From the NCBI GenBank assembly GCA_964016885.1, contig OZ024743.1, positions 16,244,001 to 16,308,000 on the forward strand: a DNA stretch of 64,000 nucleotides, read 5' to 3'. Both the position numbers and the translations under genes were made by a program. Of the stretch, positions 37,346 to 63,370 are shown in pieces. The notes beneath the pieces are model-generated. The model made no database searches. It had not been told where the DNA came from and saw only the letters and a program-made list of their open reading frames with translations. The stretch comes from Eledone cirrhosa. Lineage: Eukaryota. Every line of letters begins with the position of its first letter. Positions within the stretch are counted from its first letter, which is position 1.

Positions 37346-38945
37346 TTTAGAGCCACCTGTTCAATGACCTCTGCTCATTGATCATAAAGGTGGTGGGCAC
37401 CAGTGAGACCAAAGTATCTGAGGCACGGGCCTTCTCACCAATTTTCGGTAATTATGAGGTGTACACAACTCCAAGCCGTCCGGGATACGGTACATCTTTC
37501 TGAACACAAATGATAAGTTGCTGGTGCTAGATTGACCAGCAGTGAAGAGCATGCTTTTAGGCTTCTGGTCGTATATGATCCTACAGGGCCAGGAAAGCCT
37601 AATTCTCGGTGGAACGTCCCACTATGTATTTTTAGTGGGTGATTGGAATGACATCTTAGACGCAGACGGGGACTGTGTGGGACTAGCATATAGGAAAGGA
37701 GGGTGAAAAGCCTCATAAACCTGCTCAACTGCTTCCAAATGTCTGACAGATACCGGCTGGATTTCCCAGGTGTGGGCAAACTGCATCGAGTCAACTAGAT
37801 CATATCTAGCTATTTTCTTACTGTAGAGAAATAGGTAAGTCTAATATAGATTGTCAACAAATTCAAAGTACTCGACTACAGAAACCATAAATATAGAGAA
37901 GGGCCTAGTTACTGGAATTTAAACGCGGCGTCTCCGGGTGCATATACTGGATTAGTGAAATAGTAAAAAAAAGGCTTTGACAGAGGCAATCATCAACAAC
38001 AGATTATAGTTCACCCCGAAAAGAGCAATTAGAGTAGAATCGATAAGGTTTTGTAAAAGAGAAGTGATAGAGAAAACTAGTGTTGTGAGAGCACTAACTA
38101 ATTACAAAGCTAGAAGAGGAAATGGGAGAAGACATCGTGAACAACTGGAAGAAGAACGGGATAATATTCTCGGTCCTGTGAACCGAGGGGCGGTGGCGTT
38201 TCTGAGAAAGGACCCGAACAAAGAGGCTATATAGATAATTTCAGGACCATAATTCTGCTAAACGCAGGATCTATAATTGTCGTTGGTGTTTTGGTAGGAG
38301 ATGTGCAAGCACATGTCACCCCGGTAGATACTTTCACGACACGCTCCACCATATGCAATACGTCGTAGAGAGTTTGGCTCAAGAACCTTGCACGGGTGGA
38401 GTCCTGATAAAGTTAGAATAGTCGAAATATTTCAATAGATTACCTTGTGGCATCCACAAGGCAGCGGATTTCGGGCCTGTATTCAAAGGATGGGTAGCTG
38501 CAAAGTCCAATGGTTTGAGTGGATGGCTACCTCTCGAAACTATTTAACATCATGCACTCGGTTCACCAAGGTTGTCCTTTCTCATCTCTGTTGTAAGTAT
38601 TGATTCACGAGCCACTTCTACACTAATTGATGACATATGAGGCCGCTCACTTGAACTAGGCCGTGAAGGAACCATATCGGCATATGACGACCACCATAGG
38701 GGTGTCGACCAGCAAACATATTGAGTTGATTGGTATTGCTTCCCTCTCGAAGAATACGAAACGATAACAGGAGCAAAACATGCCAGGAAAAAGTCGCTGA
38801 GCCTGCAACTCGGCACCTGGAGAGGCAGGTTCATGCCGTCCAACAACATCGTCCGGCACTCAAAGGACGGAACGGTTAAATTGCTTGTCCTTTTAAAGTA
38901 AGCTCCATGTGGCTAACAAAGAAACCGTTATTATAATTATTATTC
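37346..38945 (+). mobile_element. Old, multiply deleted Tx1-like LINE
   Basis: Colinear nucleotide remnants of APE (CACCTG.TCAATGACCTC), RT (CTGAGAAAGGACCCGAACAA, GCATATGACGAC, CAACTCGGCACCTGGAGAGGCAGG) and the 3' end (TGTGGCTAACAAAGAAA plus ATT). Confidence 0.8.
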
Positions 38946-40462
38946 AAAAGTAGAAACAATTATAATTGTTATTATTATTATTGTTGCTGTTATTGTTATT
39001 GTTGTTGTCGTTATACTTATTGTTACTATTATTAATTTATAGTTTCATTTTCTATTCTGGTAATTCGGAAAATACTGTTGTAAGCGAATCCAAATTTCAG
39101 TAAAGATTAATAAAATAAGTTATTGTTTTGTGAACATATTTGCATATATTATTTTTTAAACTACAGGTTATATGAATAAGGAAATTAATTACACACTAAA
39201 TAAATTAAAACAGAAATACGGATTATACGGCAAAGGAAATCAATAACATAGAATTTAATTACAATAGCACTATATTCAGAAATAGATAAACAGCAACACA
39301 TTTTTCATGAGATTGTTGACTGCAATAGTGAATAAAGCAAAACGCATTCATACACTGACCTCATAATTTGAGAAAAAATCATTTTGCATTCATTTGTTAA
39401 ACATTTGATTAATACTGGGTCAAATGACAATTCACGTTATGGAAGTGAATGGAAAAAATGCATATTTTACACTTCACTAACTGTAAAATAATAATATTTT
39501 TGAATATGCATAAAAACGTATGTTAATAGACTTTCTAGTAGATAAACTTCGACCCTTGAATTCAGTATTCAATTCGCCATGCATTTAAATAGTTTGCTTT
39601 TTTAACAGTAGAAATAAAGATTATATTTTAAACAATGATAATACATTCTGTAGATATGATATATCCCTTTTAGTGAGTTCATCAAGTGAGAAGAGTGGCA
39701 AGTATCCAACCCCTCCATCTGCGCTTAGAGGTTGGTGACAAGAACACATGGCGAAATTTACACAGACACACATACACACCCATATACACACACATAGACA
39801 CACACACATAGAAACATACACACACACACATCGCTGGTTTTATAACTCGCAGTCACCTGTGTGTTTAGATTCGTTCTTTTCCCAGGGAAATATATTTTCT
39901 CAACTATGGAAGGACTTAGTTCTTCGTTTGCGACTAGATGTATATATGAATACGCACACATCCCTACTGACCATTATCACAACAATGAACCTCTTTACTA
40001 CTACAAATACACACGCACACATATTTGTCTTGAAAGACTTATTTTTCAGTGACTTCTCAATCAGCCGAGACAAACCTACATTTGGCGCAAAATCAATTTT
40101 TAACATTCACATGACCTCTACCGACCAATCAAAATTGTTTTGATCACAAGAATATTTGCAACACGAATTGGCGCGAAACTTATTTTAATACATCTGGAGC
40201 CACTTTTTTCACATAAAATAGGTAGAATTTCCAAAACTAATCAGATTAGAGCAAACATCACGGGCGCTCTATCTCAAAATTATTTTTGAAAAGCATTAGA
40301 AGTGCGCAACCGGTAAAAACTTAAAACCAAAACTGAATACTAACCAATACTTATTACTAATTTTTACTTATTCATAATTAAACTATTTTTCACTGGGAAC
40401 AATATGTCAGCATTTTCTTTTCCTTTTACCAATATATCATAACTCGTGTGTTACACCTCTAT

Positions 40463-51759: not shown

Positions 51760-51884
51760 TTCTTCTTCTTCTTCTTCTTCTTCTTCTTCTTCTTCTTCTT
51801 CTTCTTCTTCTTCTTCTTTATTCTTCTTCTTCTTCTTCTTCTTCTTCTTCTTCTTCTTCTTCTTCTTCTTCTTCTTCTTCTTCA
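51760..51884. repeat. (TTC)n microsatellite directly 5' of a Tx1-like copy
   Basis: Directly visible. Confidence 0.95.
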
Positions 51885-51886
51885 AC

Positions 51887-53944
51887 GCCCATAACTCTGC
51901 TAAACACAGACTTCAAGATTTTGGCTAGGGTGCTAGCAAAGAGGTTGGCGGTTGTCGTTGGTGGTCTGGTGGGAGAGGCGCAAACATGCGCAATTCCAGA
52001 CAGATCCATCAACGACAATCTCCACCGTATGCGATACATCGTAGAGAGGGTAGTTAGGGAACCTGGCATGGGTGGGTCTTTGATCAATTTAGATCAGTCA
52101 AAAGCTTTCGATAGGGTCGACCATCGTTATCTGGCAGCAGTCCTAAGAGCAGCTGGCTTTGTGCCTGTCTTTAAAGGTTGGATTGCTGCCATGCACAGCG
52201 ACATCTGCTCTGTGGTGAGAGTGAACGGTCACATTTCGGAACAGTTCAACATCATGCGCTCGATCCGCCAAGGATGTCATCTCTAGTCCTTGTACGTATT
52301 GACTCTTGAGCCATTACTGGACAAACTGGAGACGTTGAAGGGGATCCCACGTGAACTAGGATGCGGAGGAACAGTGTCAGCTTATGCAGACGACATCACC
52401 GTAGTGGTGTCGAACAGCAAACACATCGAGGCAATCGGCACCATACTAAGAGAATACGAGGTAGTGACAGGAGCAATGATCAACCAGGAAAAATCAGTAG
52501 GCCTGCAACTCGGCACCTGGAGAGGCAAGTCAATTCCGCCCAACAGCGTCGTCGGGCACTGGTCGGACGGACCGGTTAAATTGCTATGGGTCTGATTCGG
52601 TCCAGACCTCCAAGCAGACAAACACTGGGAGGAGGTCACGAGCAAGGTGTTTTCTCTCACCCAGAAATGGGCCGAGAGGAAGCTATCCCTGAAAGGTCGA
52701 GCGGAGGTGGCGAATGCGTACATCGCGTCCGTCATCATCTACCACCTGACCGTCGTGCCTTGTCCTAAGCCTCGCCTGACTGCACTGGAGCGTTTGCTCA
52801 CTTTTTGTGGAAGGGACGTTCACCGATGGTCAGGCGGTCCTTCTACTGTCAACACTCGCTCACTGGGCATGCCGTGGCTGATGATGCGCAGCAGACAAGC
52901 GCTCAGGCTACGCCATCTCCACCTCTTCCGCGACGGTGATCAGGTGTGGTCGCCCTTTGCTAGACGCATGTTTACCCAGCTTGTCTCTTTGGCGCAGCTG
53001 CAGTCCTGGGTCAAGCGGAGACTGAGAGGAAGCGCTTGGAGACTAGAATGTCTTCAGGCTTTCTATAGAGGATTAGTGGAAGGAAAGAGCGACGAAGTCC
53101 TTGGGGAGACTCTAGGCGTCGAGGAAAACCAACTAGCCAATCTCTTCGGGAGAACTTTCGTGTCGGGGCGCAGGGAAAACTTCCAGAAATCCCCGGTCTG
53201 GCAGTGCTACCAGGGAGCCTTGCCAGTTCGGGATAGACTCTACAGGCATGGAAGTGCCGTCAGCCGAGCCTGTCCGAGATGCGCACAGGGCGATGAAACC
53301 GACCTGCACGTACTCGTCCAGTGTCCGAGCAATGCTGATTGGTGGGTTTATGCCGAACACCTGCTGTCACGTGTAGGACGGATCCGGCTATCAGCTGAGT
53401 CCATCGTGAAGATTGCCCCAGCGCCTTCCTTTAGCCGAGAAGGGCAAGCAGTTTTTAATCTGCCTGGTGGCCATGGTAAAAGTGATTGTATGGTGGACAC
53501 GTCTGAAAGGGTTGAGGACCGGTACCTTCCTCTTAGCTGACGGCCTCATTAACTTTTACGGGTTTCACCTGAAGAGGATAATCAGGGTGGAGAGGGAAGT
53601 GCTGTCCCCCAGCCAGTTTGTTGAAATGTGGGTGAGAGAGGCAGGAATGGCCCGTGTTAATGGGTCTATCCTGAGTGAGTGGCTGTAGCATTGTAGGAGG
53701 AAAACTGGAAGAGTGCATTTGACCTAGCGGTCAGGCTAACCGCAGCTTTTCTTGTGGGCTTTCTCCACGAGCAAGCCTCGGAGGTCTCCCCTATTGGGAA
53801 TTTTTCATTGTTTCCATTTATCACACTTTTCTTTGTTTGTTTTTACACGCAGAAATTCCCATTTGTATTGTCATGTGTTGTCCTTAATGTTATACTTTGT
53901 GTCAACCCTTGTGGTTAATAAAGAAATCATTATTATTATTATTA
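51887..53944 (+). mobile_element. 5'-truncated Tx1-like LINE (RT to 3' tail), disrupted
   Basis: Begins at RPITLLN; LDQSKAFDRV, YADD and CCHC present; AATAAAGAAATC(ATT)n end. Confidence 0.95.
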
Positions 53945-53945
53945 C

Positions 53946-54664
53946 AGTTTCATTTATCTTGCTTTATGTTCATACGAATTATCACTAAGTCACAACCAGT
54001 GACCTCAAGAGACAACAAGGTCCTCCATGTTCAAGAAAGAAAATACATACACACATATGCATCTTTAGGGGTTTAGACTTGTGATGTACTTATATTGACA
54101 TCATTTTCCTTAGTATATGGGCAGTTCCCATTAGTACTAACTTTTGTATTTCTCCTATACGCAGGTTCCCTGGGATTTGCGATAAGTAATCATTAGACCC
54201 CTTATGTATCATTCCTAGAGCGCCTACAACCACTGGTATTTTTTTTAGTTCTCAATTTCCAATTTCTATCTCCAGGTCCTTATACTTGTTCAATTTTTCA
54301 AAAGTTTTTAGAAATACATTCTTGTCTATTGGAATGGACATATCAATTAGCAGGCATACCCTCTTTTTAAAGTCCTTCAATATTATATCAGGTCTATTTG
54401 CATCTATTTTTCGGTCTGTTTGGATGCTAATGTTCCACCAGATAGAGATGTGATCTTTTTCAAGTATGGGAGGTGATTTAAGCTCCCACCAATTCTTTTG
54501 ATGGGACAGGTCAAAATGCTTACACATTATCCAATGTATGTATTGTGCAGCTCTGTTATGCCTGTTTAGGTATTCGGTTGGAGCTATATGACTGCACATT
54601 GAAATTATATGGTCAATGGTCTCTGGTTGTTTTTTACATACACGGCATAATGGGCTGCATCCAT
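53946..54664 (-). mobile_element. R4/Dong-like non-LTR retrotransposon 3' fragment (CCHC plus restriction-like endonuclease), subfamily B
   Basis: CRVCKKQPETIDHIISMC, RHN, RPDIIL...LIDMSIP, K..KYKDL, then QKLVLMGTAHILRK. Clade assignment is inferred. Confidence 0.85.
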
Positions 54665-54953
54665 TCTCTCTGAGAACGTCGTCGCACTTCCCCTCCACTA
54701 TCCTCTATAGAACGCCGAGGTGGATGTTCCACCGATACTGGTGACCAGCTAGCAGAGGGCAGTGAGCGCCTGGAGACATTCCAGTTTCCAAGCGCTATCC
54801 CTCGGTCTTTTTCTGACCCAGGACTGCAGCTCGGTCAAGGAGACGAGCTGAGGGAAAACATGTCTGGCGAACGGCGACTACACCTGTTCACCGTCAAGGA
54901 AGCACCAAAGCTGTCGCAGCCTCAGAGAATGTTTGCGCATCATCAGCCATGGC
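54665..54953 (-). mobile_element. Internal Tx1-like ORF2 fragment fused 5' of the Dong-like fragment
   Basis: Near-identical to about 62146-62434 in reverse complement. Confidence 0.9.
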
Positions 54954-54968
54954 ATTATTATTATTATT

Positions 54969-55635
54969 CAGTCATTGATGTTAGTTAACTGGAAAGTTTG
55001 TTGAGATGAATATCAAGCCACTACCTGCAGCCTCAGATATTCAGGACGTATCGGAGGGTTCTTGCTGTTCCCAGCAAGCATGCCTTTTGAAGCGTTCCAA
55101 AAAGCGTGAAGGGGCCAATATTCTTTAACCATCCCTGGAAACTTTTTGAGATAGTCCCTAGTGCGCCTATGACAATCGGGATCACTTTGACTTCATGGCA
55201 GTTCCAAATCCTTTTTACCTCCCACTTTAAGTCCTGGTATCGGTTAATGTTCTCCTTCTCCTCCTCTTGCACTCTCGTGTCGAATGGGCAGGCCACATCC
55301 ACAATCAGACACGATCTTTTTTCTTTGTCCAGAACCACCAGGTCAGGTCTATTGTGTTCCAGTTTCTTGTCCGTCTGTATCCTAAAATCCCACAGCACCT
55401 TCACCTGATCGTTTTCTATCACCGCCTCTGGCTTATGCTCATACCACTTCTCAGAATGTGGTAAATTGTTTACTTTGCATAGGTACCAGTGGATCACCCT
55501 GCCCATCACATCATGTCTCCAGACTTTATAGTGAGTCTGGGCTAGATGTTTACACTCGGATACAATGTGAGCCACAGTCTCCTCTCTCTCTCCACAGATC
55601 CTGCACAGTGGGCTAGCCTCCTCCCTGTAAATGTG

Positions 55636-55636
<1 letters not shown>
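54969..55636 (-). mobile_element. R4/Dong-like non-LTR retrotransposon 3' fragment, subfamily A (ORF 55033-55575 uninterrupted)
   Basis: CRICGEREETVAHIVSEC, RHD, RPDLVV...IVDVACP, YQDL, QKACLLGTARTLR; (ATT)n on both sides. Confidence 0.88.
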
Positions 55637-55698
<62 letters not shown>

Positions 55699-55699
55699 G

Positions 55700-55869
55700 T
55701 TGTTGATATTCCTTGAATCTCAGTCATTGATGTTGGTTAACTGGAAAGTCCGTTGGATTGAATATCAAGCCACTACCTGCAGCCTCAGATATTCAGGACG
55801 TATCGGAGGGTTCTTGCTGTTCCAAGCAAGCATGCCTTTTGAAGCGTTCCAAAAAGCGTGAAGGGGCCG
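55700..55869 (-). mobile_element. Second, very short 3' fragment of Dong-like subfamily A
   Basis: Near-identical to 54969-55117; (ATT)n on both sides. Confidence 0.88.
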
Positions 55870-56111
55870 ATTTTATTATTATTATTATTATTATTATTGA
55901 ATGCCATGGTTGACGGAGGCTCGGCTCTGTAAGGTATAGTAATTTTTAACCGTTAAAACAATTGTAAATTATTTAAAACTTGAACCAAATTGTTGATAAA
56001 GACACCCTCCTCCTCGTGAGAGGGGTCTTTCTGTCCGTTATTTGGCCCTTCGGGGTTAAATAGCCAGTTATTGGGGTTTTGTACCCAAAATTTCATTTTA
56101 AACAAAAAAAC

Positions 56112-58211
56112 ATGGCTACCAAAAAAAAAAAATTTCATACGTCACTCCCACTCATTCCGTCTTCTTCTTCCTCAATCATCACTACAGGAGAGAGAAGATT
56201 GTCTCTCTCCCTCCCTTCTTTAAATGTGTCTCTCTCCCTACCTTCTCTTTCGCAAGCGACGAAAGAAAAGAAAAGTCTCGTGCAAAGCGTGCAAGGTTTC
56301 TCCACGACGATGACGACAGCGACGAAACAGGTGTGCGGGAAATACGAAAACCCAGTTCATTCGTCTGACGTCAGGAATAATAGCAGTAGCAGCCGTAATA
56401 ACAACAGCAACAGTGACAATGAAAACAACAGTAGCAGCCGCAACAGCATCACCAGCAGCATAAACAACAACACCATTAGCAGCAGCAACACCAACAACAA
56501 CCACAGCAACAGCGGCGGAGGCAGTAGTCGTAGTACCTGCAGCAACAACAAAAGTACCAGCAGCTCTGACGACAACAACAACAGCAGAGAAAAACCAATC
56601 TCATTTGCAGGTATTGCGAAAAACCTGGAAACAATCCTCATAACAAATGAGGAATTAGAGGAAGCGAAGAAGATGGTGACAAAGAACGGACACCGAGCAA
56701 TCTGCAAGGCAGCGAAAAATTTTTTCGAAACCCAAGAGCACTGTACGGTCACGTACCGTACAGTAAGTACAAAATCCCGTAGGGTGGAAAGAGCCACAGA
56801 GGCCCAAATACAAAAAGCCTTGGGGTCTGTGTGGCAGAGGAAAACGCACATCACCCGAGGCAAAAAATACGCCACCGTAGACGTACTTTTTGCCACACCC
56901 CACGAGGCAAAGGCCCAATCAGTAGTGACCCTAAGGAGCGAGGAAATGGTGTTGGTGCCCTCCTACTGCGGGCAAAAAATTGTGAGGGTCAAACTGACCC
57001 ACGTCCCCCCCGGAATGACCCCTTCTTGGCTGGCCGCGTCTGTCCTCGTCGGAATCGAGGACAAAACAACTGTACTGCAAGTACAGAAAAAAGTAAGAGA
57101 AGATTGGGTCGGCTCCTCCATTGAGATGCTAATCCAAACCAACCAGGAGTGCATCGAAGCTATCCCGGATGTGATAGACTTCGATAACGGCACTCAACTG
57201 CCCATAAGTGTTGAGGGCAAACGCCCGAAATGCTTTCGCTGTGGATCGAAGACTCACCTCAGGGCCTTCTGCAACGAGAAGACCCTGAGAAAGGAGAAAA
57301 CCCCCCTCCTCCCGAATCCGGTTCCACGGCTACCAGCAACAGGACAAGCGGCAACCAGGAACGATAGGTCCGTGGCACCCATACCCACTCCACGGAAATC
57401 AAAGACAGCAGCAGCAGTGGAAATATTAACAACAACAACAGCAATACCAAATGCAGCTGCAACAGAGACTCCAGTGCAAACATCACCAACAACAACAAGT
57501 GAAAGAGTGGAGCTGGTACCCCTCCCCGACCTTACAGAATCAGACATGGAGTGTGAGGTGGGAGAGGGATGGCAAAAGGTCTCAAGAAGGCACAAACGCA
57601 GAAGCAGCGCATCGTCGCCTTTGAAAAGGGAGGAAAGAAATGAGAAAAGGGTAAAGTCTACTGCAAAGAGACCCACAGCAGCAACACCACCAACACCATC
57701 ACCACCCACACCAGCACCACCATCACCACCGGCGACAACCCCACCGCCAACAACACCTTCAACACCACCACCACAAGCACCAACATCGCAAACACAACAA
57801 CAAAACACACACACCCAGCAACAACGACAAGAAAATAGCAGAACCACACCCCACCCCCAGAAAAACAAATGCACGGCAATAAACACACACAACAAGAAAC
57901 TAATGACTTACATAATTGAACACACAGACATTTCACAACAGGACTACATAATACCAGCACCAATCAAAACGCCAACTAACATAAGACTGCTAAAAATAGC
58001 ACAGAAACAATACACAAACATTAAAACGAAATTCCCCAACGCAGTTGGTGATTTCAGGGACCTAGGAGGAACCATTAATCGAAGAGTATATTCAGACATT
58101 CTCTTAGAAGAGCCGACGACCAGCCGAAGGGACGATTCAACGGTCCCTTCACCAGACGATCAAGTGAAAAGGGATGTAAAAACCATCCCTCCTCTACCAA
58201 AAATACGGTAA
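56112..58211 (+). CDS. LINE ORF1 nucleic-acid-binding protein (CCHC zinc knuckle; N/S-rich and P/T-rich low-complexity regions)
   Basis: CFRCGSKTHLRAFC fits CX2CX4HX4C and lies upstream of ORF2. First ATG is at 56112; the true start could be downstream. Confidence 0.85.
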   Translation: MATKKKKFHTSLPLIPSSSSSIITTGERRLSLSLPSLNVSLSLPSLSQATKEKKSLVQSVQGFSTTMTTATKQVCGKYENPVHSSDVRNNSSSSRNNNSNSDNENNSSSRNSITSSINNNTISSSNTNNNHSNSGGGSSRSTCSNNKSTSSSDDNNNSREKPISFAGIAKNLETILITNEELEEAKKMVTKNGHRAICKAAKNFFETQEHCTVTYRTVSTKSRRVERATEAQIQKALGSVWQRKTHITRGKKYATVDVLFATPHEAKAQSVVTLRSEEMVLVPSYCGQKIVRVKLTHVPPGMTPSWLAASVLVGIEDKTTVLQVQKKVREDWVGSSIEMLIQTNQECIEAIPDVIDFDNGTQLPISVEGKRPKCFRCGSKTHLRAFCNEKTLRKEKTPLLPNPVPRLPATGQAATRNDRSVAPIPTPRKSKTAAAVEILTTTTAIPNAAATETPVQTSPTTTSERVELVPLPDLTESDMECEVGEGWQKVSRRHKRRSSASSPLKREERNEKRVKSTAKRPTAATPPTPSPPTPAPPSPPATTPPPTTPSTPPPQAPTSQTQQQNTHTQQQRQENSRTTPHPQKNKCTAINTHNKKLMTYIIEHTDISQQDYIIPAPIKTPTNIRLLKIAQKQYTNIKTKFPNAVGDFRDLGGTINRRVYSDILLEEPTTSRRDDSTVPSPDDQVKRDVKTIPPLPKIR

Positions 58212-58246
58212 GTGGTCTTTCCCATCTTTTCCACTCTATTTTAAAC

Positions 58247-61200
58247 ATGACCTCACTCAGAATAGGCAGCATAAATGCGCGTGGCTTGGGGTCGTCATGG
58301 AAGCAGGGTCACCTGCTCAACGACCTCAGGTCACTAAACATAGATGTAGTGGCCATCAGCGAGACCAGAATCTCCGAAGCACGGGCCTTCGCACCGATCT
58401 TCGGCGGCTACGATGTGTACGCATCTCCCAGCCGTCCTGGATCGGGTGGAGGAGTTGCTGTGCTTTTTCGGAGAGGTTTGGATCTCGCCATACGGGCCAT
58501 CTTCCTGGACCCAGAGGGTAAGCTGGTGGTGCTGGACGTGACCAGCGGAGACGGGCAAGCTTTCAGGCTAGTGGCCGTCTATGCCCCGACAGGAGCAGGG
58601 CGGCCTGATTTCTTCCGGCGTCTGGAGACCTTTCTTGGAACGTCGCGCTCTTTAGTGTTAGTGGGCGACTGGAACGGGATCTTAGATGCACGCTGGGACT
58701 GTGTGGGATTAGCGGATAGGGGTGGAGGGTGCAAGAGCCTCACCAACCTGCTCAGGCGTTTTGAACTGTCTGACAGGTACCGATTGGATTTCCCGAATGT
58801 GCCAATGTGGACTTGGACAAACCGCATAGGGTCATCCAGATCATATCTAGATAGAGTATTTTGTAGGGAAATAGATAGGTCTAGCATAGGCTGTCCACAA
58901 TTCAAGATAGTCAGCTACACGGACCACAAATTCGTGATCTGTGTGCTTGACTTAGATAGGCTTCATAGACGAGGACCCGGCTACTGGAAGCTAAACGCGT
59001 CCTTACCAGCGCGCAAGGCCTACAGAGACCGGATTAGCGAACTAGTTAAGCGGGCGTTGACGGGGGCCATCGTCAACAACAAGTGGTGGTTTGCTCTGAA
59101 AAGAGCGATTAGAATAGAATCGATTAGGTTTAGTAAGGCTTTAGCAATAGAGAAAAATAGAGCAGAGGGAGAACTAGTTAGAAAATTAGACGAGGCGCTT
59201 AGCAAAGGCATTGCGACCGACGTGCTTGCGGCGAAATTGGCCCTTGACCAATTCTTCAATGCAAAGCACGAAGGCTGCGTTGTCAGAGCTAGGGTGCGTG
59301 CTCTCAGACACGAGGGGACGAAAGCCGTTCAATGGGCCCGAGTGGCGGAGGCGCGTCGTGGCAACAAAGCCACGATCCGGTCTTTGGTGGACCACGACGG
59401 GCGCATGCTACTCGATCCCGGGCAAATGTGTGAAGCTTTTCAGCGACACTTCGCTCAGCTGTTCGGGGGCAGCGGGGGGCCGGGTAGAGGGATGGACTTT
59501 AGTGTCTACCTCGACGGACTGCCGCGGCTCTCGGCCACTGAGGCGAAGTGTTGCGAAAAGCCGATAACAGCCGCTGAAGTAAGGGAGGCAATGACTGGCT
59601 GCACAAGGGGTAAATCGCCTGGTTTGGATGGTCTGCCCTATGAACTTTACGTACAGATGCCAGACTTGTTCGGAGGCCTCTTGGCGGACGTCTACTGCAA
59701 CTGGCAACAGAACGGGAGAATTCCCAGTTCTGTGAGCCGAGGAGCGGTGGCACTGCTGAGAAAGGATCCGAACAAGGGGGATAACATAGACAATTTCCGG
59801 CCCATAACTCTGCTAAACACAGAGTTTAAGATTTTGGCCAAGGTGCTAGCAAAGAGGTTGGCGCTTGTCGTTGGTGGTCTGGTGGGAGAGGCGCAGACAT
59901 GCGCCATTCCCGACAGATCCATCCACGACAACCTCCACCTCATGCGATACATCGTAGAGAGGGTAGCTAGGGAACCTGGCACGGGTGGGTCCTTGATCAA
60001 TTTAGATCAGTCGAAAGCTTTCGATAGGGTCGACCATCGTTACCTAGCGGCAGTCCTGAGGGCGGCTGGCTTTGGGCCCGTCTTCAGAGGCTGGATCGCT
60101 GCCATGCACAGCGACATCTGCTCTGTGGTGAGAGTGAACGGTCACCTGTCGGAACCGTTCAACATCATGCGCTCGGTCCGCCAAGGATGTCCCCTCTCGT
60201 CCCTCTTGTACGTATTGACTCTCGAGCCATTACTGCACAAACTGGAGACGTTGAGAGGAGTCCCGCGCGAACTAGGATGCGGAAGATCCGTGTCAGCATA
60301 TGCGGACGATGTCACCGTAGTGGTGTCGAACGCCAAACACATCGAGGCGATCGGCACTACACTAAGAGAATACGAAGCGGTGACAGGAGCAATGATCAAC
60401 CAGGAAAAGTCAGTGGGCCTGCAGCTCGGCACCTGGAGAGGCAGGTCCATGCCGTCCAACAGCGTCGTCGGGCGCTGGACGGACGGACCGGTTAAATTGC
60501 TAGGGGTCTGGTTCGGTCCGGACCTCCAGACGGACAAAAACTGGGACGAGGTGACGAGCAGGGTGGCTTCTCTCACCCAGAAATGGGCGGAGAGGAAGCT
60601 ATCCCTGAAAGGTCGAGCGGAGGTGGCTAACGCGTACATCGCGTCTGTCATCTGCTACCGCCTAACCGTCGTACCTTGTCCTAAGCCTCGCCTGACTGCG
60701 CTGGAGCGTTTGCTCTTTCGCTTTTTGTGGAAGGGACGTGCTCCGATGGTCAGGCGGTCCATCTGTTGTCAACACCCGCTACGTGGAGGGCTGGGCATGC
60801 CGTGGCTGATGATGCGCAGGCACGCGCTCAGGCTACGACATCTCCACCTCTTCCTCGACGGTGATCAGGTGTGGTCGCCGTTTGCTAGACGCGTTTTTCC
60901 CCAGCTCGTTTCCTTGACGGAGCTGCAGTCCTGGGTCAAGCGAAGACCGAGAGGGAGCGCCTGGAGACTGGAATGTCTTCAGGCGCTCACAGCCCTCGAC
61001 CAATCGGGCAATGTGATCGGTGGAAACTCCACCTCGGCGTTCTATAGAGGATTAGTGGAGGGGAAGAGCGACGACGTACTTGGGGAAACTCTAGGCGTCG
61101 ACGAAAATCAACTAGCCAATCTCTTCGGAAGAACTTTCGGGCCAGGGCCTATGGACAACTTCCAGAAATCTCTGGCCTGGCAGTGCTACCGAGGAGCCTT

Positions 61201-61666
61201 GCCAGTTCGGGATAAACTCTACAGGCATGGAGGTGCCGTCAGCCGGGCATGTCCGAGATGCGCGCAGGGCGACGAAACCGTCCTGCACGCACTCGTCCAG
61301 TGTCCGAAAATTGCTGACTTGTGGGTTTATGTCGAACACCTGCTGTCGCGTTTAGGACGGATCCAGCTATCATCTGAGTCTATCGTGAGGATTGCCCCGC
61401 CCTCCTCCTTTAGCCGGGAAGGGCAGGCAGTTTTTATCTGTCTGGTGGCCATGGCGAAAGAGATAGTATGGTGGACACGTTTGAAAGGGCTGAAGACGAG
61501 CACTTACCTCTTCGGTGATGCTCTGATTGACTTTTTCAAATTTCATTTGAAAAGGAAAATCAGAGTAGAGAAGGAAGTGCTCTCTTCCCAGCATTTTGTT
61601 GAAAGATGGGTGAGAGAAGCAAGAATGGCCCGAGTGAATGGGCCGACTCTGAGTATATATCTGTAA
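58247..61666 (+). CDS. LINE ORF2: AP endonuclease, reverse transcriptase and C-terminal CCHC
   Basis: SINARGL, SET, VYAP, GDWN, LDR, TDH (APE); KSPGLDG, RPITLLN, LDQSKAFDRV, RQGCPLS, YADD (RT); GGLG; CPRCAQGDETVLHALVQC. Confidence 0.97.
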   Translation: MTSLRIGSINARGLGSSWKQGHLLNDLRSLNIDVVAISETRISEARAFAPIFGGYDVYASPSRPGSGGGVAVLFRRGLDLAIRAIFLDPEGKLVVLDVTSGDGQAFRLVAVYAPTGAGRPDFFRRLETFLGTSRSLVLVGDWNGILDARWDCVGLADRGGGCKSLTNLLRRFELSDRYRLDFPNVPMWTWTNRIGSSRSYLDRVFCREIDRSSIGCPQFKIVSYTDHKFVICVLDLDRLHRRGPGYWKLNASLPARKAYRDRISELVKRALTGAIVNNKWWFALKRAIRIESIRFSKALAIEKNRAEGELVRKLDEALSKGIATDVLAAKLALDQFFNAKHEGCVVRARVRALRHEGTKAVQWARVAEARRGNKATIRSLVDHDGRMLLDPGQMCEAFQRHFAQLFGGSGGPGRGMDFSVYLDGLPRLSATEAKCCEKPITAAEVREAMTGCTRGKSPGLDGLPYELYVQMPDLFGGLLADVYCNWQQNGRIPSSVSRGAVALLRKDPNKGDNIDNFRPITLLNTEFKILAKVLAKRLALVVGGLVGEAQTCAIPDRSIHDNLHLMRYIVERVAREPGTGGSLINLDQSKAFDRVDHRYLAAVLRAAGFGPVFRGWIAAMHSDICSVVRVNGHLSEPFNIMRSVRQGCPLSSLLYVLTLEPLLHKLETLRGVPRELGCGRSVSAYADDVTVVVSNAKHIEAIGTTLREYEAVTGAMINQEKSVGLQLGTWRGRSMPSNSVVGRWTDGPVKLLGVWFGPDLQTDKNWDEVTSRVASLTQKWAERKLSLKGRAEVANAYIASVICYRLTVVPCPKPRLTALERLLFRFLWKGRAPMVRRSICCQHPLRGGLGMPWLMMRRHALRLRHLHLFLDGDQVWSPFARRVFPQLVSLTELQSWVKRRPRGSAWRLECLQALTALDQSGNVIGGNSTSAFYRGLVEGKSDDVLGETLGVDENQLANLFGRTFGPGPMDNFQKSLAWQCYRGALPVRDKLYRHGGAVSRACPRCAQGDETVLHALVQCPKIADLWVYVEHLLSRLGRIQLSSESIVRIAPPSSFSREGQAVFICLVAMAKEIVWWTRLKGLKTSTYLFGDALIDFFKFHLKRKIRVEKEVLSSQHFVERWVREARMARVNGPTLSIYL

Positions 61667-61927
61667 ACTAAAGGTGGAAAACTGGGAGAGGGCACTTGCC
61701 TTGGTGGTCAGGGTCATTGTGGCTTTTTACTGGGCTTTCTCCACAAATGTCCCTCCGAAGTCTCCCCCCTATTGGGGAATTTTTCATTGTTATTTTCATT
61801 GTTATTTTTGTTACATCCTCTATTTTTGTTTTTTTTACACGCAGAAATGCCCATTTGTACCGTCCTGCATTGTCCTGCACTGTCCTTAATGTCTACTTTA
61901 TGTAAACCCTTGTGGTTAATAAAGAAA

Positions 61928-61988
<61 letters not shown>

Positions 61989-63370
61989 CATCCTTCATCT
62001 GCTACAGCTTCACCGTCGTCTCTTGCTCCGGCCCAACTCTCACCAAAATGGAGCGCCTCCTCTTCCGCTTTTTGTGGAAGGGCCGCGCTCCTATGGTCAG
62101 ACGATCCATCTGCTGTCAACACCCGTTGTGTGGAGGACTGGGCTTGCCATGGCTGATGATGCGCAAACATGCGCTGAGGCTGCGACATCTCTGGTGCTTC
62201 CTTGACGGTGAACAGGTGTGGTCGCCGTTCGCCACACATGTTTTCCCACAGCTCGTCTCCTTGACCGAGCTGCAGTCCTGGGTCAGAAAAAGACCGAGGG
62301 ATAGCGCTTGGAAACTGGAATGTCTCCAGGCGCTCACTGCCCTCTGCCAGCTGGGCACCAGTATCGGTGGAACATCCACCTCGGCGTTCTAAAGAGGATA
62401 GTGAAGGGGAAGTGCGACGACGTTCTCAGAGAGATCCTGGGCGTTGAAGAAGATCAGCTGTTTGCTCTCTTCCGGAGAACTTTCAGCCCAGGGCCTATGG
62501 ATAAATTCCCATAATCCCTGGCCTGGCAGTGCTACCGGGGAGCGCTGCCGGTTCGAGATAAGCTCTACAGGCACGGAAGTGCCGTCAGCCGAGCCTGTCC
62601 GAGATGCGCGCTGAGCGGAGCGACGAAACCGTCGTGCACGCACTCGTACAGTTCCCGAGCATTGCTGACTTGTGGAGCTATGTCGAACAGTTGCTGTCGC
62701 GTGTAGGACTGATCCGGTTATCGATTGAGTCCATTGTGCAGATGGTCTCGCCGTCTTCCTTCGAGGAGGAAGTGCAGGCGGTTTTCATCTGCCTGGTGGC
62801 CATAGCGAAAGAGATTGTGTGGTGGACAAGGTTGAAAGTGTTAAAGACAGACACTTTCCTCTTCGGCAAATCCCTAATTAAGTTTTTCAAGTTTCACGTG
62901 AAGAGGAAAATCAGGATGTAGAGGCAAGTGCTGCCTTCTAGCAAGTTTGTTGAAAGTTGGGTGAATGTAGCGAGAATGGTCCGAGTGAACGGGACAGCTC
63001 TGAATATACATCTGTAGTTTGAAAAATGGAAATAATTGAGAGAGGCCGCTTGCCCTGGTGGTCAGGGTGGCCGTGGTCTTTCGTGTTGTTTTCGCCACGA
63101 GTAACCCTCGGATGTTTCCCCCCTATTGGGGAATTTTTCATTGTTTCAATTTTCATTTTTATTGTTTATATATATATATGTTCCTATGTCCTCTTTTTTT
63201 CTTTCCTTATATAAATAATACAAATATTTACACGCACAAAACACACATCGTACCGTCCTGTACCATCCTGTGCCGTCTGTAATGTTTTTGTTGATGTCAG
63301 CCCTTCTGGCCAATAAAGAAATCATTATTATTATTATTAATTATAATAATAACAATATTATTATTATTTA
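61989..63370 (+). mobile_element. 5'-truncated Tx1-like LINE of a different subfamily, abutting the tail of the full-length copy
   Basis: Colinear with ORF2 from about 60640 to the 3' end; AATAAAGAAATC(ATT)n. Confidence 0.93.

Follow-up and report, generated by a model that had tools for sequence, protein, structure and literature searches.

The window analysed here is a 64,000-nucleotide stretch of the Eledone cirrhosa genome (C4:16244001-16308000 of a 3.0-Gb assembly). Positions 51760 to 63370 of the window hold an array of long interspersed nuclear elements (LINEs) of two kinds, Tx1 and Dong, stacked in opposite orientations on (ATT)n tracts. The Tx1 element carries an APE endonuclease, and the two Dong families, DongA and DongB, carry a restriction-like endonuclease (RLE). 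The array is genuine, and the genome holds many others like it. The order and orientations of its pieces, as given in an original prediction made from the sequence alone, were borne out by the sequence, the open reading frames (ORFs), and self-alignment. The pieces are as follows, with percentages giving the similarity to the nearest fetched copy:

51760-51883, no strand: (TTC)n tract of about 40 units, the 5' flank of a truncated Tx1-B; a single case and no family target
51885-53928, plus strand: Tx1-B, 5'-truncated and decayed, from the reverse transcriptase (RT) to the 3' untranslated region (UTR); 90.0%, the most diverged piece
53929-53943, no strand: (ATT)5, common to the Tx1-B tail and the DongB tail
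53944-54664, minus strand: DongB 3' part with the CCHC and RLE region and the 3' UTR; 94.6%
54665-54954, minus strand: reversed Tx1 piece, an inverted duplicate of the local Tx1-C 62145-62434, joined to DongB at the latter's 5' truncation point
54954-54968, no strand: (ATT)5 tract
54969-55632, minus strand: DongA 3' part with CCHC and RLE, without its last ~19 nt; 98.0%
55636-55698, no strand: (ATT)21 tract
55699 to about 55874, minus strand: second DongA insertion, 3' end only; 99.4%
55875-55898, no strand: (ATT)8 tract, the 5' flank for both the DongA end and Tx1-A
55899-61929, plus strand: full-length Tx1-A, 6031 bp, the youngest piece; 99.96%
56112-58211, plus strand: Tx1-A ORF1, open, 699 aa
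58247-61666, plus strand: Tx1-A ORF2, open, 1139 aa, with APE endonuclease, RT, and zf-RVT
61930-61986, no strand: (ATT)19 tract, the Tx1-A tail and the Tx1-C 5' flank
About 61990-63323, plus strand: Tx1-C, 5'-truncated and decayed, the template of the inverted piece; 94.1%
63324-63368, no strand: decayed (ATT)n tail with (ATT)5, the end of the array

The 10 kb past the window end contained no match to Tx1 or Dong. The terminal ~19 nt missing from the DongA piece at 54969-55632 are present in most of the other copies compared. The most diverged pieces are outermost, and in the interior the similarity to the nearest fetched copies rises from left to right, towards the Tx1-C head. This gradient is consistent with successive insertion beside the Tx1-C head.

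The clade names Tx1 and Dong are taken from architecture and target, because the database search gave no named reference: there was no named Tx1 reference among the protein-database relatives of Tx1-A and no named Dong or R4 reference among those of the Dong families, all of these relatives being unnamed. Tx1-A has two ORFs, and ORF2 carries APE, RT, and a C-terminal zinc motif (zf-RVT). The closest solved structure to ORF2 is L1 ORF2p (E = 3e-52), with R2 at 1e-21. A CX2CX4HX4C knuckle is readable in the sequence of ORF1, for which there were no Pfam matches above the cut-off. By architecture and target, Tx1-A is likely an APE-type LINE of the Tx1 clade. Full-length copies of DongB and DongA elsewhere in the genome have a single open ORF of 1216 aa and about 1130 aa, respectively, and the two ORFs are 35% identical. 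In both, RT is followed by CCHC and then by a C-terminal region that can be aligned to the R2 nuclease. The Dong RT is closest to R2 (E = 2e-30), and no APE was found in the Pfam search. A single ORF with RT, then CCHC and a PD-(D/E)xK restriction-like nuclease, and with no APE is the arrangement of R4/Dong elements. Elements of the R4 clade also lack N-terminal zinc fingers and have a divergent Myb/SANT-like region. No N-terminal zinc finger was seen in the full-length DongA and DongB ORFs, and both contain a W-x-x-E helix motif. By architecture and target, we assign DongA and DongB to the RLE LINEs of the Dong/R4 kind.

The shared (ATT)n target claimed for Tx1 and Dong was confirmed genome-wide. 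Among exact Tx1-A 5' ends, 1,642 of 1,687 are preceded by TTATTATT, which far exceeds chance and lies above the threshold of a target in >20% of flanks that Kojima sets for sequence-specific insertion (PMC4494074). In all 30 full-length Tx1-A heads that were fetched, the join with (ATT)n falls on the identical base. At 60 Tx1-B/C loci, the 5' truncation was visible in the fetched DNA for 29, and at least two ATT units were present in 16 of these 29, versus 4.1% by chance. Truncated Dong 5' junctions mostly follow (AAT)n. The opposite orientation of the two kinds of element likewise held. Over all element-selected loci, the tract sides read ATT in sense with Tx1 at 308/310 and antisense to Dong at 283/288, so that the target and tail on the Dong sense strand are (TAA)n, as in R4/Dong elements. 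The tail sides of the elements are self-made, so the 5' sides carry the polarity information, and overlapping loci were deduplicated by flank only. At the informative 5' sides, the rule was kept at 126/127 for Tx1 and 128/130 for Dong. In this flank analysis, Tx1 5' flanks were enriched for ATT and Dong orientation was non-random, as the original prediction required for ATT.

A ~180-bp short interspersed nuclear element (SINE; L319, many loci) also ends in (ATT)n and lies in the Tx1 orientation at 97/99 tract sides. It is likely mobilised by the Tx1 family and forms a third source of tracts. Sixty evenly spaced 10-kb stretches (600 kb) contained 13 tracts of at least 5 units, of which 6 touch Tx1, Dong, or SINE, and the polarity rule was kept at 9/9 element-touching tract sides. 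The base share in this sample was ~5% for Tx1-like sequence, 0.7% for Dong, and 1.9% for SINE.

Tx1 and Dong copies cluster, as had been expected, and stacks elsewhere reach roughly 35-40 kb. At the heads of 29 other young Tx1-A copies, the neighbour was a young Tx1-A in 11 cases, Dong in 8, an older Tx1 in 4, a SINE in 1, and nothing recognised in 5; at 29 tails, it was Tx1 in 13, Dong in 6, a SINE in 2, and nothing recognised in 8 (some of the loci belong to one array). The 4/29 young heads that follow an older Tx1 3' end bear out the claim that Tx1 tails serve as targets. The further claim that the tails form a self-extending landing site stood only in part: tails do serve, but both flanks receive insertions, every insertion rebuilds the target on either side of itself, and Dong and SINE also rebuild it. 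Tails therefore act as targets without being special.

One explanation of the stacks is that the elements independently hit any ATT tract, tails included, and that neighbours are similar as a result of one-lineage bursts into few accessible long tracts. Such passive regeneration would suffice for mixed Tx1, Dong, and SINE stacks, including the array in the window, and 6/13 background tracts already touch these elements. However, it does not account for the number of direct Tx1-A tandems. Perfect (ATT)6+ runs number 83,319 genome-wide (interrupted tracts counted more than once), and random tract choice (1,687/83,319) would therefore give 2.0% direct tandems. In a test built on spacing among the first 100 heads listed, 14 were direct tandems, with a same-strand head 5.9-6.3 kb away, which is ~7-fold above the expectation (p = 2e-8). 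Of 24 gaps <10.5 kb among the same heads, 23 were same-strand.

We additionally compared 56 full-length copies, 55 from 21 regions around search matches plus the window copy; one older copy (95.7%) was excluded from the tests. The first kb was identical at informative sites in 16/32 adjacent pairs (10% when shuffled, 0/5000 permutations), and the last kb was identical in 1/32 (5% when shuffled). With whole-copy duplicates ignored, the best match for the 5' 2 kb lay within the copy's own array in 16/44 copies (4 arrays); for the 3' 2 kb, this was so in 0/44. Array-private alleles at the head are combined with discordant tails in three arrays (C4_36, C3_247, and C2_110), and in C2_119 two copies bear the first 245 bp of an older copy further down. 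The outer 5' flank is also repeated in the spacers, four times in C2_188 and twice in C1_234, where it consists of ~200 bp of unique DNA ahead of different haplotypes. Where spacers are interrupted or unique, they correspond to the outer 5' flank (3 arrays), and no array seen had such spacers matching the 3' flank. The pattern was replicated in one array picked solely by spacing, for which the prediction was set before the analysis. In its copies 1-3, an identical first 1,226-1,657 bp is followed by 26-38 differences; the interrupted tract of the outer 5' flank recurs before each of the four heads, and copy 4 shares no head.

Passive regeneration fits the different haplotypes found in many neighbours (7/12 arrays lack strong 5' sharing). 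It does not fit the private head alleles with discordant tails, the ~200-bp unique 5' flank repeated before different haplotypes, or the 7-fold tandem excess. The 14/100 tandems and the mosaics of resident 5' and incoming 3' parts therefore make it insufficient, and as the sole explanation we regard it as quite improbable. Reads mis-assigned among tandem copies during assembly or polishing could also give mosaics and duplicates: the copies are 99-99.9% alike, identical units exist, and the data from four sequencing runs were contigs that do not bridge the array. However, the sharing tracks element polarity whichever genome strand the array is on, the spacers vary in length, and the 3' parts bear family alleles present at other loci, all of which argue against an artefact, and we give this explanation very little credence.

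Target-primed reverse transcription is the established integration route of such elements. Our preferred reading, with a probability of about 0.68, is that an APE LINE (likely Tx1) and two RLE LINEs of the Dong/R4 kind use the same (ATT)n/(AAT)n repeat in opposite directions, that stacks grow because each insertion is left with a tract on either side, and that in Tx1-only stacks the incoming cDNA likely completes on the resident downstream copy. This reading joins the directly observed target preference, polarity, stacks, direct-tandem excess, 5'-only haplotype sharing, and 5'-flank repeats in spacers. Tx1 and Dong would nick opposite strands of one tract. Tx1 RNA ending in (AUU)n would prime at a nick in the AAT strand and Dong RNA ending in (AAU)n at a nick in the ATT strand, and the opposite orientations would thereby be fixed. 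Because the tract would be split and a new tail added, each insertion would yield one extra target, and large stacks would attract more insertions. If the tract on the 5' side of a resident Tx1 were nicked, the 3' end of the cDNA could anneal to or invade the resident. Copying of the resident's head and of its upstream spacer would then produce a full-length neighbour in head-to-tail order, its 5' part being of resident origin and its 3' part new. A nick in this position followed by cDNA pairing would account jointly for the tandem excess, the resident heads with new tails, and the 5'-flank repeats. We see an even chance that a microsatellite-targeting LINE in this way routinely rescues truncated cDNA from the resident's head, as a main integration route and on a two-clade self-built target, thereby forming arrays of several full-length copies and shuffling 5' UTR/ORF1 and ORF2 haplotypes.

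The same target and polarity could be combined with another history, in which Tx1-only stacks start from a double insertion and then expand through unequal exchange of chromatids or alleles, and gene conversion that favours the 5' (promoter) end homogenises the heads. R1 tandem arrays and transposable element dimers form by double insertion and then unequal exchange, a known route for R1 and other tandems (PMC5932611). Unequal exchange would explain the tandem excess and the repeated spacers, and whole-copy duplicates with spacers are present at C1_234.2/.3, C2_119.1/.3, and C2_188.2/.4. However, when insertions land on either side, crossover hybrids should have 3' parts in common no less often than 5' parts, contrary to the counts of 16/44 (5') and 0/44 (3'), and older Tx1 was indeed observed upstream of young copies about as often as downstream. 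Unequal exchange thus requires an additional, putative 5' bias, and we consider it unlikely.

Several results weigh against our preferred reading, that of a shared target with completion on the resident copy. ATT is missing at 13/29 truncated older Tx1 junctions, indicating that Tx1 specificity is not absolute. The tandem excess weakens to p = 0.03 if one quarter of the ATT runs are usable. When counted per array, 9/12 lean 5' (sign test p = 0.07), strongly in 5/12, pairs within an array not being independent, and the replication set of spacing-picked arrays consists of one array. Five within-array pairs differ by at most 1 base throughout, which suits unequal exchange. A common young 5' haplotype or single-lineage bursts can mimic sharing where there are no private alleles, as in C2_72, C2_121, and C2_188.

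The DongB 5' junction in the window bears on completion as well. The original prediction listed the reversed Tx1 fragment among the stacked copies; rather than an insertion, it is an inverted copy of the local Tx1-C. No ATT tract lies between DongB and the reversed piece, which reads AAT at its 5' side and is the one exception to the array's strand rule. Their junction is spanned by 1/40 scored matches, and among the others the window's own Tx1-C ranks best. Six variants are common to the reversed piece and the local Tx1-C and are missing from 21 other copies. The private variants and the unique junction therefore indicate an inverted duplication of local DNA at the 5' junction of DongB, and on the same two observations we rejected an independent insertion, a twin-priming inversion, and a multi-copy chimera. 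The duplication likely arose while Tx1-C adjoined the DongB insertion site. A DongB junction that holds DNA copied from the adjacent Tx1-C was counted in favour of the completion model. L1 insertions that carry an inverted duplicate of neighbouring DNA have been described (bioRxiv 10.1101/2024.12.14.628481).

The suggestion that TTC is also a Tx1 target failed. All 30 full-length heads follow ATT, TTCTTC is present at 0/13 of the non-ATT truncated junctions, and only the Tx1-B of the window directly touches TTC, so that insertion into (TTC)n of the Koshi type is not seen. The full-length DongB 5' end starts with (AAT)n-AA-(GAA)n in 2/5 fetched copies, which on the other strand is (TTC)n(ATT)n. 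Several tracts of this (TTC)n(ATT)n type form the 5' end of full-length Dong copies, as does the window's own start; no DongB 5'-end sequence lies ahead of the TTC tract at 51760. The start of the window is a second small stack (70-2819), in which a minus-strand Dong 5' end is followed by (TTC)22(TTA)18 and then by a decayed Tx1-like element (~560-2771) with an ATT tail.

The elements themselves are of known kinds, and the insertion of Dong into (TAA)n has been reported (PMC3812793, PMC7998251). The Dong elements of the R4 clade (Bombyx Dong, DongAg, DongBg, and ostracod Dong) resemble the families in the window in their (TAA)n target and in a single ORF with RT and a C-terminal CCHC and restriction-like nuclease (PMC3812793, PMC7998251). 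They are also without N-terminal zinc fingers and have been reported in molluscs (PMC3812793, PMC7998251). Unlike known Dong, two families with 35% identity here share one target and are co-stacked with an opposite-strand APE element, and one of the full-length 5' ends opens with a run of (GAA)n. The Tx1 elements with microsatellite targets, namely, Kibi on (TC)n, Koshi on (TTC)n, and crocodilian Tx1 on (TTCC)n/(TTTC)n, are like Tx1-A two-ORF APE LINEs of the L1 group (PMC4494074), but target and tail here are (ATT)n. The tandem insertions of SINEU-3 sandwich a target duplication (PMC4494074), in likeness to the stacking here. In Octopus vulgaris, Dong-R4 and L1-Tx1 are listed among recently active elements, and the words "target" and "nested" are absent from the main text of that paper (PMC13282606). 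PMC4640811, PMC5105311, and PMC2666801 provided background or references only.

The APE and RLE nucleases, which converge on one trinucleotide repeat from opposite strands, are a clean pair for the study of target recognition, and the Tx1 and Dong elements are a sizeable source of ATT microsatellites in this genome. TRAS1 and SART1 belong to the R1 clade. In Bombyx, they are likewise two LINE families in one simple repeat in opposite directions, with the endonuclease as the main determinant (PMC7265360). They differ in that both are APE elements on telomeric (TTAGG)n and SART1 has a poly(A) tail (PMC7265360), whereas here APE and RLE classes meet on an interstitial microsatellite rebuilt by their own tails. 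In R1 tandems and transposable element dimers, a preserved target site likewise permits head-to-tail tandems and expansion (PMC5932611). The non-LTR tandems described there mostly have 5'-truncated partners (PMC5932611); in contrast, the partners here are full-length mosaics whose heads are of the resident type. Integration intermediates of L1 are likewise completed on homologous DNA nearby or on local DNA, which yields chimeras, long duplications, or inverted duplications. In Gilbert 2002 and Gilbert 2005, L1 cDNA is said to recombine with resident L1. The L1 cases are occasional events in cultured or cancer cells, whereas here target specificity would routinely put cDNA beside a near-identical copy in a germ-line genome.

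The 5'-end joining of non-LTR retrotransposons is still poorly understood. If 5' completion on the resident copy is true, the ~1,700 full-length heads, many of them in tandem, would be a natural record of cDNA completion with switch points mappable from sequence. Such completion would also explain the abundance of full-length copies and the swapped 5' ends in the Tx1-A family, and it would offer a route from a dispersed LINE to a satellite-like array. Our literature search found no ATT/TAA-specific Tx1, although Kojima and Fujiwara 2004, Repbase, and paper supplements (e.g., the target tables of PMC4494074) were outside its scope and could list one. Nor did the same search reveal an APE/RLE pair sharing one microsatellite or LINE tandems with 5'-resident mosaics. 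The (ATT)n target of Tx1 and the APE/RLE pairing were thus not found in print within this scope, and the sharing pattern is a testable signature of neighbour-templated 5' completion.

Further variation was observed within the Tx1 family. An A-run near the start of ORF1 (window 56119-56130 and other copies) has 12 or 13 units or is interrupted, and the 13-A form cuts ORF1 to 512 aa; the length variation could be due to slippage or assembly error. A subfamily at L127, L154, L155, and L158 has a different 5' UTR and ORF1 on a 93-98% identical ORF2, joined at element position ~2265, a 5' swap. At L146 (the third copy of array C4_36), the last 134 bp are repeated in tandem, and at L149 the array (C3_247) opens with a 5'-inverted Tx1 of the twin-priming type. 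The start of the 3' flank of the young copy at L020 resembles the unique spacer of array C1_234 (L129-L131), a possible 3' transduction. Of the sampled Tx1-A words (window 55899-58400), 65-89% were present in runs under four different organism codes. The Tx1-A contigs from runs X2 and X6 are ~99% alike, suggesting either close relatives or recent interspecies spread. Within the window, positions 37354-39034 hold an old Tx1-like remnant with 64-69% similarity to Tx1-A, followed by a decayed ATT tract.

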